Of a DNA stretch of 32,000 nucleotides, positions 16,734 to 20,524 are shown piece after piece. The notes beneath the pieces are model-generated. The model searched no databases and had not been told where the DNA came from. It saw only the letters and a program-made list of their open reading frames with translations. The translations under genes and the position numbers were made by a program. The DNA comes from Candidatus Harpocratesius repetitus. Lineage in GTDB: Archaea > Asgardarchaeota > Lokiarchaeia > Sigyniarchaeales > Promethearchaeaceae. The stretch lies in assembly GCA_021498095.1 (NCBI GenBank), contig JAIZWK010000001.1:3960001-3992000 (forward strand), read 5' to 3'. The first letter of the stretch is position 1; every line of letters begins with the position of its first letter.

Positions 16734-18048
16734 TTGTCCCAAACACATAAAAATAAACGCCAAAATAAAAAGAAATCGAATTTTTTTCAGCGTTATATTC
16801 TAGATTTGAAAATTAAAGTTTTATCATTAAACGAGATCCAAGACCATTTACGAGTATGTCATAATTACAATATCTCTATTAGAAGTATTAGAAATATTTT
16901 ATGTGATTTAGGTGCAAAAGCTAAAGCTGTTAATCGATTTTACGATAACAAAGTTCTGCCTAAAATTAAAATAGCTGAAGCCGATGAAATTTATCAAGGT
17001 CATAATAACATGTACATAGGAATTGCTGATAAAAATTCCAACTATTTAGTTTCTCTAACTCAGTTAAATTCTAAAAATACGGAATCTTTTCAAAAATTTT
17101 TCGGCCAATTTTCGAATAACTTATCATCCCTGGTTGTATGGATGACTGACGGGCTGCACACATATAATCCTGTGTTAAATTCGACGTATCCTAATATTAC
17201 TCATATAATCTGCCACGTGCATACCTATCGGGAAGTAATGAAAGAACAAGAAGTCTACAATCGGAAAGCGCGTTGGAAATATAAAAACTTGAAGAAAATG
17301 CGAGAAAATTTAAAAAATGCAGAAAAATACTTAAAAAATAACCAAAAAACTGTCAATGCTGCAATAAATTCCATGAATGCGATTGAATCTGAGCGAAATC
17401 AATTCTATTTGAAACACGGAATTAAAAAATACAGTAAAACAAAAAATTTAAAGCACAGCGGACAAAATATAAAAAAGAACTTCAAAATCTTCGAGCATAT
17501 ATAAGATCATATCAAAAACAGGTCAAACATTGGCAAAAGAAAATCCAGTATTTTCAAAAGGATTTGAAAGAGACGGAATTGTAATATATTAAATCTAAAA
17601 TCATTGCTCTTCAAAGTGGACGACTTGTAAAAGAATTTAAAGATTTGCTAGACAGCAGATGGAATGAATTTGAGAAAAAGGAGCGTCGTTTACTTAAAAT
17701 TTATTCTGATTCACCATATCCAATTGCTAAAAAACTAACAAAATTATTTCAAATAAGAAAAAGGTGTTTAACGATAAAACTGAAAGAATTCAAAGCATGG
17801 TTCCACCCAATCGAGCTAACACCAACACAATGGAATCAATTTTTGGGAGATATAGACTTTTTTTTTAAAAATATCGAAAAATGAAAGATACAAAATACTC
17901 TAAAGCGGTATTTGAAATACTAAGATTGCATCACAACCTTTCTCCACCATATTCCGGCCCAAATCAAGATAAATCACCTATAACCAGGGCTGGAATCAAG
18001 ACTAAATATATAAATTCTATAGATCGATTATGTAGAACGATTTCGTGA
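16734..18048 (+). pseudogene. Decayed DDE transposase (IS remnant); IS family not confidently assigned (IS66/IS256/ISH6/IS6-like catalytic layout)
   Basis: The ORF 16734-17504 carries ADEIYQG (D1), WMTDG (D2) and CHVH. Coding continues after a frameshift near 17495 and an in-frame TAA at 17582-17584. A further shift near 17750 gives NTNTMESIFG (catalytic Glu, about 17818-17847), and another near the T-run at about 17860 gives ILRLHHNLSPPYSGPNQDKSPITRAGI, ending at TGA 18048. No terminal IRs found. Confidence 0.8.
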
Positions 18049-18291: not shown

Positions 18292-18843
18292 ATGTTATAC
18301 ATGAAAGAAGCGGAAATTAAAATTCTTTTAGAGATTAAAGAAAATCTTATTCACATTATTCAAACAAAAACAGCAGATCTTGAAAAGATAAAACAAGAAA
18401 TCGATAATATTAATTCCCAAGTTGAGAAAATAAATCAATTAATTTCAAGTGGGAGTTTTATTACAGCTGCAAATTTAATTGATGCAGAAGCTGCTGCAAA
18501 AAAAAAAATATCTATTACCAGTAATACTGAAATGGTTAAAAAAATCTTTTCTAGTGATAAATCTTTATTAGCTGATTTAAAATATTCAAATTATACAGTA
18601 AAAATTCGATTTCCTGACCCTAAAAAAGTAAATTTTTCTCAAGAATTATATATTACAAAGTTTGTAAAACCCATTTTAGTCCCTCTAAAAAAAAAAGAGC
18701 CGAGTCTTCAATCTCAAATAAGCAAACTGGAAATTGATAATGAATTATTTATTTCTTCAATTATTTTACAAAATGTGAACCAATTTGATAGTTTTTCTTC
18801 CATTTATGAAAGTCTAATAGATCTATTACGAAAAAATGTTTAA
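18292..18843 (+). CDS. Hypothetical protein, N-terminal coiled coil plus alpha/beta C-terminal domain
   Basis: 183-aa ORF (ATG 18292 or 18301). Heptad-like N-terminus (LLEIKENLIHIIQTKTADLEKIKQEIDNINSQVEKINQLI) followed by an SFITA motif. Confidence 0.7.
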   Translation: MLYMKEAEIKILLEIKENLIHIIQTKTADLEKIKQEIDNINSQVEKINQLISSGSFITAANLIDAEAAAKKKISITSNTEMVKKIFSSDKSLLADLKYSNYTVKIRFPDPKKVNFSQELYITKFVKPILVPLKKKEPSLQSQISKLEIDNELFISSIILQNVNQFDSFSSIYESLIDLLRKNV

Positions 18844-18962: not shown

Positions 18963-19799
18963 TTGATGATGGCAAAAAAACCGAAAAAAGCTATTCTCAT
19001 TTACCCTAAAATTCACTCCACTTATAATAGTGATGCAATTGAGACTGCTTTAGTAAATAAAGCAAAAGAATTGCTGGAATTGGATGAAGAAGAGATCAAT
19101 TTTATCTTTTTAAGCGGAAATTTCTTTGACGCAAGAGGTTGGGCATATTCTGCAATACGTTCTTGGCGTGGTGCAATTAAACCTTCAAGTTCAAAAAAAA
19201 GACCAATATTGGATGCAACATTTGCATGCTTATCTGTATATCTTTCCTCATTAATAAGTTTTCAAGCGGATTTTGCTTTTGCATATGACGAAATTAAAGA
19301 AATCTTGAACGAGAAAGGTCGTGATGATTTGTGGGCAATTATTGAAGAGAAACTACCATTTGTTTCATTACCACCAGCAGAAATGTTCCCTCCAGGCTTA
19401 AAATCACCAATTGCACCATATTATACGTTAAAACAAGATGAAGAATTGTTTTTAGGTGAATTATATAGCACAGTATTTTTATCAAATTATGTAAAAAACA
19501 TGAAATCGCGTTATTATGTATATTTTTCATACAGGGGATATAGTGCATTTGGTTATTTTTCAGCTTTACCAAAAACAGATAATTTTGGATTCGATCAACC
19601 TCCACGAGACTTTAATATGGATCCTACAGAAGAAAATTTTGTGAACTTTATTAAAAGTTCCACAACTTTGAAAGATTTAATGATGGCACTTATTGAAGCC
19701 CATAATAACTCATTACTAGAACAATTCCTCGTGGATGATTATGAAACATTTTTAAATCAATTATTAGAAATTGAAGAAATAGATGAAGGAGAGGGCTAA
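18963..19799 (+). CDS. Hypothetical protein (about 277 aa), probably co-transcribed with the GTPase
   Basis: Long ORF with normal composition and no recognisable domain. Its stop is 2 nt before the GTPase ATG. The real start is probably ATG 18966 or 18969. Confidence 0.75.
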   Translation: MMMAKKPKKAILIYPKIHSTYNSDAIETALVNKAKELLELDEEEINFIFLSGNFFDARGWAYSAIRSWRGAIKPSSSKKRPILDATFACLSVYLSSLISFQADFAFAYDEIKEILNEKGRDDLWAIIEEKLPFVSLPPAEMFPPGLKSPIAPYYTLKQDEELFLGELYSTVFLSNYVKNMKSRYYVYFSYRGYSAFGYFSALPKTDNFGFDQPPRDFNMDPTEENFVNFIKSSTTLKDLMMALIEAHNNSLLEQFLVDDYETFLNQLLEIEEIDEGEG

Positions 19800-19801
19800 A
19801 A

Positions 19802-20416
19802 ATGGCAAATATAGGTTTACTTGGAGCAGTCTCAGTCGGAAAAACTACAATCTTGCGTTTATTTGTGAAATACCTCAAAACAAAGAAAATTGTTGATGTT
19901 AAGGGTGGAAAGGAATGTGTGGTGGTAAAAACGGATTTTTCAGGAGAAGCTGTTTTAGATCCTGAGACAGGTGTCAAAGAAACAAAAACAATTCACCCTA
20001 ATCGAGTAGTTTTTCGAGAAGTTGATACTCATAAAAACCATACATTGTTTGCACCAGGGGGTGATCGAGGGCGTGCAGTAGTACGAATGGGTGTTATTAC
20101 AATTTCCAGAATTGCTAAACAAATTATTGCAGTTTTTGCATGTGATCGCCCAGTAAAGGATCAATTTCAATTCTTCCGAGATGTGCGGTTTTTCCCTGGA
20201 CAGATATATGTTTGCTTTAACAAATACGATCTTGTTCCCGAAGGCGAGAGAGAATCAACGATAGAGAAAATGAAAGAAGAGATTATTGATTTCTTTATGA
20301 AACGAAAAATCTCAATAAAAGAATTTCATATTGTCTGCGCTGAAAATATTCCAAATATGGAAGAATATAATGATCGTGCTGCAGAAATGATTTTAAAAAT
20401 TGCAACAGAAAATTAA
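19802..20416 (+). CDS. Atypical small GTPase (Ras superfamily; MglA/COG2229/Arf-like)
   Basis: G1 GAVSVGKTT, G2-like KTIHPN, G3 position LFAPGG (no Asp), G4 NKYD, G5-like CAE. 204 aa with the standard strand/helix order. Confidence 0.85.
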   Translation: MANIGLLGAVSVGKTTILRLFVKYLKTKKIVDVKGGKECVVVKTDFSGEAVLDPETGVKETKTIHPNRVVFREVDTHKNHTLFAPGGDRGRAVVRMGVITISRIAKQIIAVFACDRPVKDQFQFFRDVRFFPGQIYVCFNKYDLVPEGERESTIEKMKEEIIDFFMKRKISIKEFHIVCAENIPNMEEYNDRAAEMILKIATEN

Positions 20417-20524
20417 TAAGAATTAATTCTAAATTCTGTTTTTTCATTCATTTAATATTCAGCGTTGCAACAAAATTAAATTAAAAAAAGAAGGATATAC
20501 GAAAAAAATCATTATTCAAATAAA

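Follow-up and report, generated by a model that had tools for sequence, protein, structure and literature searches.

Can a small G protein operate as a switch when both classical residues of its catalytic loop are replaced, and to which GTPases is it related? This question is raised by a 204-aa protein encoded in the window analyzed here, an AT-rich stretch of 32,000 nt (about 30% GC) from a genome which consists of a single contig of 4.36 Mb. As far as can be judged from its sequence, the protein is probably a partner-dependent molecular switch of a kind not yet described. Its gene is the last of a three-gene unit, just downstream of which an archaeal ribosomal-protein and RpoD cluster is encoded. 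The features of the unit are the following:

18292..18843, + strand: gene for a fast-evolving protein of 183 aa, separated from the partner gene by an AT-rich gap of 125 nt (ORF map, sequence)
18969..19799, + strand: gene for the 276-aa partner (P0193), which belongs to no known family; its stop codon lies 2 nt before the ATG of the G-protein gene, and its last codons contain the SD-like GAAGGAGAGGG (sequence)
19802..20416, + strand: gene for P0001, the orphan G protein of 204 aa, with which the unit closes (ORF, stop-free translation)
19823..19846, + strand: G1/P-loop G8-AVSVGKT15; all 121 clusters have G8, S11, G13, K14, and T15
19934..19948, + strand: D45-F-S-G-E49, a second DxxG-like motif, in which an additional beta-strand of the long switch I ends (120-121 of 121 clusters; strand 39-45 from the model)
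19976..20005, + strand: K59-ETKTIHPNR68, including the G2 Thr (T63) with the adjoining Lys62 (120-121 of 121 clusters)
20048..20068, + strand: rewired G3/switch II F83-A-P-G-G-D-R89; A84 takes the place of the Asp, and D88 that of the catalytic His/Gln (alignments, conservation)
20162..20164, + strand: Q121 after beta-4, nearly invariant throughout the family, distant members included
20219..20230, + strand: G4 N140-K-Y-D143, guanine specificity; N, K, and D are invariant
20336..20344, + strand: G5-like C179-A-E181, after beta-6 in the model (E181 in 120/121 and C179 in 115/121 clusters)
20438..20445, + strand: T6 run after a double TAA stop, possibly an archaeal terminator (sequence and ORF map; terminator function inferred); the next gene is convergent

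Just upstream of the unit, an IS66/Mutator-type transposase ORF (256 aa; DDE_Tnp_IS66, E 4e-8) and short ORFs are found at window positions 16734-18048. The wider neighborhood of the three-gene unit differs in a relative (L001).

Nearly all signatures of the P-loop GTPases of the TRAFAC class are present in the 204-aa protein: G1 (GxxxxGK[ST]), the G2 Thr, G4 ([NT]KxD), and the G-domain fold. The exception is the DxxG of G3: its Gly is retained, whereas none of the 121 core clusters has the Asp. A canonical P-loop and NKxD had been recognized in the first-pass annotation, and both (GAVSVGKT at residues 8-15 and NKYD at 140-143) proved to be invariant. T63 is present in 120/121 clusters and is paired with the Thr of GITI in the CysN-like GTPase of the same genome when the latter is aligned to the family HMM. 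The protein is predicted to be a guanine-nucleotide-binding protein, with strict selection on the motifs that contact phosphate, Mg, and guanine (G1, the G2 Thr, and NKxD).

The AF2 model (pLDDT 89) shows a G-domain fold with the elements in canonical order: beta2 (67-73), a hairpin, beta3 (79-84), the PGGD loop, and helix alpha2 (92-104). The protein stops at helix alpha-5 and is devoid of the beta-barrel domains II and III. A gap of about 40 residues between G1 and G2, to which attention had been drawn earlier, is indeed seen (48 residues from Thr15 to Thr63, with the extra predicted beta-strand 39-45 inside), but such spacing is ordinary for the Tr-type class. DFSGE and KETKTIHPNR are separated by a variable loop which is modeled with low confidence (pLDDT about 60). 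We tentatively equate Q121 with the Gln of the QTxEH motif of translation factors.

The central peculiarity of the protein is the sequence FAPGGDR at the position of G3. All alignments agree that the G3 Asp and the catalytic Gln are missing, as had been claimed from the sequence alone. In a phmmer alignment with aIF2gamma, APGGD is paired with DSPGH; with the family HMM and the CysN-like GTPase, FAPGGD is paired with IDTPGH and TKTI with GITI; and hhalign was run against the translation-factor and Ras-like groups. In every case, A84 falls on the Asp and G87 on the Gly of G3, and D88 falls on the catalytic His/Gln. The assignment of A84 to the Asp column also follows from the divergent relatives P0130 and P0160, which have the canonical DxxG (FDPGG) in the same column as FAPGG. 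P0130 (231 aa) combines this G3 with a GVPNSGKT P-loop; we take GxPNxGKT to be the pattern of the K+-dependent Era/EngA/MnmE-type GTPases.

Conservation was evaluated on 121 homologue clusters with 59-100% identity. P85, G86, G87, and D88 occur in all 121 of them, and A84 in 118 (replaced by G in two and by S in one, never by Asp). The APGGD motif is thus confirmed as a fixed character of the family which reflects neither chance nor decay, and, on the sequences compared, APGG is standard solely within this orphan family. Similarly strict is the conservation of K59, K62, H65, N67, R68, D45, and E49 (120 or 121 of 121). The arginines of GDRGR had been proposed to act as an intrinsic finger; this idea is weak because neither is invariant (R89 in 103/121, R91 in 111/121). 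The protein has a second DxxG, D45-F-S-G48, which is invariant. It was rejected as an alternative G3, since residues 84-87 are assigned to G3 by all profile alignments and also by their location between beta3 and alpha2 in the model. Together with the preceding hydrophobic strand, DFSG may nevertheless supply the carboxylate functionally.

A search of 5.8 billion proteins retrieved 631 homologues, and those carrying a name are all from Promethearchaeota/Lokiarchaeota. The exhaustive search of 1.84 billion representatives yielded only 71 representative clusters, with no sign of a canonical GTPase family among the matches listed. Within the phylum, 301 genomes were sampled. The G-protein gene was found in 69 of the 75 genomes from the window's own order, and three further families have copies of greater divergence (E about 1e-35; 17/21, 2/2, and 1/1 genomes); at 1e-10, the gene was not found in the rest of the 301. 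The family, as delineated by these searches, is distinct and undescribed, and is found in almost every genome of one Lokiarchaeal order and additionally in a divergent sister clade. Members of the sister clade have YGTGGH, and thus a His at position 88, and lack DFSGE.

In one genome of the sister clade (G259, locus L006, 4471-5997), a GTGGH-type G protein of 193 aa is followed after 30 nt by an ORF of 304 aa without a Pfam match. By hhalign, no similarity between this ORF and the 276-aa partner was seen (probability 0.2), and the ORF may represent a different partner. A HerA-like ATPase is encoded divergently upstream of the GTGGH-type gene.

The genome from which the window is taken codes for a paralogue outside the window (654693-655307, - strand; locus L005, 5682-6308) which is 52% identical and retains FAPGGDR. 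No gene for the 276-aa partner is found beside it. Its direct neighbors are a TraB/PrgY/GumN-family protein (334 aa) downstream and an uncharacterized protein of 117 aa upstream, with a beta-helix/NosD-like protein (789 aa) farther upstream.

Orphan G-like domains also occur in larger Lokiarchaeal proteins, with three types of fusion: to SIR2_2 plus TPR, to TPR, and to a Ras domain. The multidomain proteins P0134, P0139, P0147, and P0142 (810-828 aa; for example, locus L002, 4001-6433, and also G057:C106:2365-2958) have the domain at the N-terminus, often with a dead P-loop and with FAPGG kept. P0134 and P0139 additionally carry a SIR2_2 domain and TPR repeats, an architecture reminiscent of conflict or signaling NTPases. 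A canonical Ras-family domain accompanies the orphan domain in P0137 (538 aa; orphan domain C-terminal) and in P0144 (433 aa; orphan domain N-terminal). Weak matches to DO-GTPase2 (PF19993) were obtained for 10 of 55 family members.

The gene for the 276-aa partner is single-copy and restricted to the same order, where it was found in 70/75 genomes. Among the 70 genomes with both genes, 66 have the partner gene immediately before the G-protein gene and on the same strand; in one of the four exceptions, the genes are 6 kb apart, and in the other three they are on different contigs. The partner has 55 invariant columns in 38 sequences with identities down to 51%. Neither Pfam nor NCBIfam provided a match, and there is no Robl_LC7 signature. 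Searches of the Protein Atlas gave no usable match for the partner and only unnamed archaeal clusters for the 183-aa protein. The latter is usually encoded upstream of the pair: with a single-sequence query, it was detected in 29/81 genomes, and it was located upstream of the pair where detected.

The AF2 model of the partner is poor (pLDDT 63). Its fold matches, at Z 5-7, are alpha/beta sandwiches of the roadblock/longin/GAF type, the best being the C-terminal domain of LokiRagO (Z 7.1), RagC (7.0), MglB (6.0), Mon1-Ccz1 (5.9), and an MK-D1 roadblock protein (5.6); this Z range is also reached by unrelated folds. That the partner is roadblock/longin-like is thus suggestive only. A complex prediction for the G protein and the partner gave a score of 0.01, which counts neither for nor against binding.

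The G3 Asp of GTPases normally holds an Mg-bound water, and the His or Gln normally positions the attacking water. With Ala in place of the former and Asp in place of the latter, the catalytic loop is rewired, and since both residues are replaced, intrinsic hydrolysis is probably slow or unconventional. The G protein would then be a switch with a long-lived GTP state, and the co-translated 276-aa protein would set the switch cycle, possibly as a much-enlarged roadblock-type domain. Its role may be likened to that of MglB on MglA, or of the Ragulator/longin platforms on Rags and Rabs. Partner dependence had been suggested earlier; it is plausible in view of the near-universal pairing of the genes (66/70 genomes). 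We give about equal credence for and against the overall reading, a slow, long-lived GTP switch governed by the coupled upstream partner, in which we infer slow hydrolysis, physical binding, and the role of the partner. There are counterpoints to this reading. Asp88 and the invariant DFSGE and KETKTIHPNR might provide full intrinsic activity, and the paralogue, 52% identical and with FAPGGDR, has no adjoining partner.

A different function would result if the protein bound GTP but was an essentially non-hydrolyzing adaptor, as in Ski7 and the pseudo-GTPases. The nucleotide would be a structural cofactor and the surface formed by FAPGGD-MGIITISRIA a permanent protein-binding interface. Ski7 reportedly does not hydrolyze GTP, and its GTPase-like domain is among the longest-aligned structural matches (Z 14.1, 174 residues). 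The replacement of both catalytic-loop residues is consistent with such an adaptor, as are the divergent relatives and multidomain fusions (e.g., P0131, P0134, P0139, and P0147) which have lost the P-loop Lys/Thr and NKxD and still keep FAPGG and the MGIITISRIA helix (alpha-2). Because P-loop-dead relatives keep it, this segment may be conserved mainly as a binding surface and not for catalysis. The loss of G1 and G4 that is typical of pseudo-GTPases is confined to these divergent relatives and does not apply to the 204-aa protein and the core family. Against the adaptor, the invariance of D88, DFSGE, and KETKTIHPNR in the core family indicates more constraint around the gamma-phosphate site than is needed for binding alone. 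We consider the adaptor rather unlikely.

The same invariant residues (120-121 of 121 clusters) could be taken to mean that the protein is a self-sufficient GTPase with relocated catalytic residues. In EF-Tu, a switch-I Asp holds Mg-bound waters besides the G3 Asp. By such an arrangement, D88 would orient the water, D45/E49 would stand in for the absent G3 Asp in its second-shell contact to Mg, and K62/R68 would serve as the intrinsic finger; the partner would be an effector and not a GAP. K62 directly precedes the G2 Thr and is thus at the position of the intrinsic Arg finger of group-1 MglA (PMC4316618). On the other hand, the confidence of the model is lowest in the loop from DFSGE to G2 (pLDDT about 60), and the arrangement is not ancestral because the sister clade has no DFSGE and has His at position 88. 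Self-sufficiency is improbable on this evidence, and the slow, partner-governed switch remains our preferred reading.

The placement of the family among GTPases was addressed by profile, fold, and tree analyses. When Pfam matches were assigned to each of 55 members, GTP_EFTU was obtained for 41 (counted at E<0.01; best 9e-9), Gtr1 for 5, Ras for 3, and Arf for 1. For the 204-aa protein itself, GTP_EFTU (PF00009) scores 18.5 bits, which is below its gathering threshold of 26.5, and the Ras, Arf, and Rag profiles (PF00071, PF00025, PF04670) gave no match at E<0.1. A profile search of PDB sequences returned eEFSec first (1e-5), followed by aIF2gamma (2e-4). In the genome itself, the family HMM scores 31-32 bits with the CysN-like and aSelB-like G domains and 15 bits or less with the approximately 50 Ras-superfamily proteins (Ras-, Arf-, and Rag-like); the MglA-like GTPase is absent from the best 60 matches. 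The best non-family match is a 601-aa CysN-like/APS-kinase protein encoded outside the window (G000:C1:3544794-3546599, - strand; locus L009). This EF1A/CysN-like GTPase consists of a G domain, domain II, and a C-terminal domain, to which an APS-kinase domain is attached.

Fold comparisons point in a similar direction, with eEFSec and EF-Tu on top in Foldseek and, after the family's own cluster, mostly GTP_EFTU sets as neighbors in the ESM-Atlas (TM 0.69-0.73). In the exhaustive fold search, TRAFAC GTPases tie at Z 13-16 over 140-174 residues without a clear nearest family; MglA (Z 15.9, rmsd 2.6, 160 aligned), EF-Pyl (15.2), and EF-Tu (14.9) lead the list. The comparison with the GTPase groups of the genome by hhalign also ended in a tie (67-84 for the translation-factor group, 69-88 for equal-depth Ras subsamples).

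In an ML tree of 46 G domains, the family is monophyletic (96/97) with a long stem, and the Ras superfamily, the family, and the translation factors plus HflX meet at one three-way node. The Rag-like proteins of the genome form a clade of their own (100/100), away from the family. MglA is represented in the tree and in the AU test by a single MglA-like sequence (G000:C1:3919343-3920041), which groups with Arf-like proteins and not with the family; a joint clade of the family with this sequence was not rejected by the AU test (p 0.25), nor was one that also includes the Arf-like proteins (p 0.28). The sequence in question, located on the + strand outside the window, is a GTPase of 232 aa which resembles MglA groups 2-5 (G2 HTTTG, G3 GVPGQ, G4 NKND).

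On these sequence comparisons, the family is an isolated TRAFAC lineage. In the ML tree, none of the groups MglA, Arf, Rag, Ras, and translation factors includes it, so that no nesting in a described subfamily with APGG as the standard is seen, and the distinct subfamily which the first-pass annotation had considered possible is borne out by the monophyly and by the small number of clusters (71 in 1.84 billion proteins). The nearest relatives, to judge from the lean of the sequence-profile and fold searches, are the Tr-type G domains (EF-Tu/SelB/CysN); profile-profile comparison and phylogeny do not discriminate. The DxxGQ of Ras and MglA, against which the loop had been read initially, may therefore be the wrong frame: an Asp-less G3 is indeed shared with MglA, but the searches lean Tr-type, and D88 corresponds to the His of DxPGH.

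A more far-reaching proposal, which we regard as possible but doubtful, is that the family is an Asgard-specific offshoot of EF-Tu/SelB-type GTPases. It would have shed domains II and III and the ribosome-activated His and would have been captured by a roadblock-type regulator. A switch that combines a small G protein with a roadblock domain would then have been invented independently, by convergence, in a lineage other than the Ras superfamily, and its catalytic arrangement, built on Asp88 and the switch-I motifs DFSGE and KT, would be new.

Least likely, and indeed very doubtful, is that the family is a divergent member of the MglA/COG2229 branch of the Ras superfamily with an Asp-less G3 and a roadblock partner (a question of membership and not of mechanism): the MglA G3 without Asp (TVPGQ or GTPGQ; PMC4316618), which the sister-clade GTGGH resembles in its GTPGQ form, the top row of the fold search (tied with EF-Pyl), the AU test, and a possibly roadblock-like partner are consistent with it, but the family has no catalytic Gln and has Lys instead of Arg/Thr beside the G2 Thr, its HMM scores (15 bits or less vs. 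31-32 bits) and Pfam matches (41/55 vs. 3 and 1) favor the CysN-/aSelB-like proteins and GTP_EFTU over the Ras superfamily, and the MglA-like sequence sits with Arf-like proteins in the ML tree.

Asgard archaea are of interest for the question of how GTPase-based regulation arose in eukaryotes. The published surveys of Asgard GTPases that we found cover Ras-superfamily groups (Rab-, Rag-, Arf-, and MglA-like), and no description of the present family was found in the literature on Asgard GTPases. The P-loop string of the 204-aa protein is absent from the alignments that supplement the survey of MK-D1 GTPases, and a literature search for the motifs FAPGGD, APGGD, and GTGGH returned only papers which, by title and abstract, are on unrelated topics. 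The modules covered by these surveys would be extended by a G protein that evolves slowly, is nearly universal in its order, and has neither of the classic catalytic-loop residues. Should the protein prove active, its active site would be built in a way that is new for GTPases; should it be inactive unless the partner is present, prokaryotes would offer a clean example of hydrolysis for which a partner is obligatory.

Among the known systems, the bacterial and archaeal polarity GTPase MglA with its Roadblock/LC7 GAP MglB (PDB 5ymx, 3t1r) resembles the pair in several respects. In both, the G protein has a single domain, lacks the Asp of G3, carries an additional strand or insertion after G1 and before G2, and has a basic residue just ahead of the G2 Thr. 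The neighboring gene codes for a protein whose model is weakly roadblock-like, and MglA is among the tied top fold matches of the G protein. The G3 of MglA is TVPGQ (group 1) or GTPGQ (groups 2-5) with a catalytic Gln, and the residue before the G2 Thr is Arg (group 1) or Thr (groups 2-5) (PMC4316618), whereas the family has APGGD and Lys62 (120/121 clusters). The partner has 276 aa and is devoid of a Robl_LC7 sequence signature, and sequence-profile searches do not link the family to Ras-superfamily or MglA-like proteins.

The Tr-type GTPases (EF-Tu/EF1A, SelB/eEFSec, aIF2gamma, CysN; PF00009) are the best neighbors in sequence-profile searches. They share the N-terminal NIGxxGxVxxGKT pattern, the long G1-G2 spacing, and the Gln after beta-4, and the sister clade keeps the GGH of DxPGH. 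In contrast to them, the family is a stand-alone domain of 204 aa without domains II and III, and DxPGH is altered to APGGD, by which both Asp and His are lost and D88 occupies the His column. Furthermore, the 204-aa protein scores below the Pfam threshold, the family is not nested in the translation factors in the tree, and hhalign ties with the Ras-like proteins.

The GTPase-like domain of Ski7 (PDB 4zke) likewise keeps the nucleotide-binding motifs with a replaced catalytic residue in switch II (Z 14.1 over 174 residues), but Ski7 is a eukaryotic multidomain exosome adaptor, and the likeness seen here is one of structure. Finally, Rag-Ragulator and the Asgard Rag-like GTPases (PDB 8yl2, 9m28, 6nzd) also bring a G domain together with roadblock-type domains, and the top folds of the partner are the C-terminal roadblock domains of Rag proteins; in Rags, however, G domain and roadblock are parts of one chain, and the G3 is of the canonical DxxGQ type.
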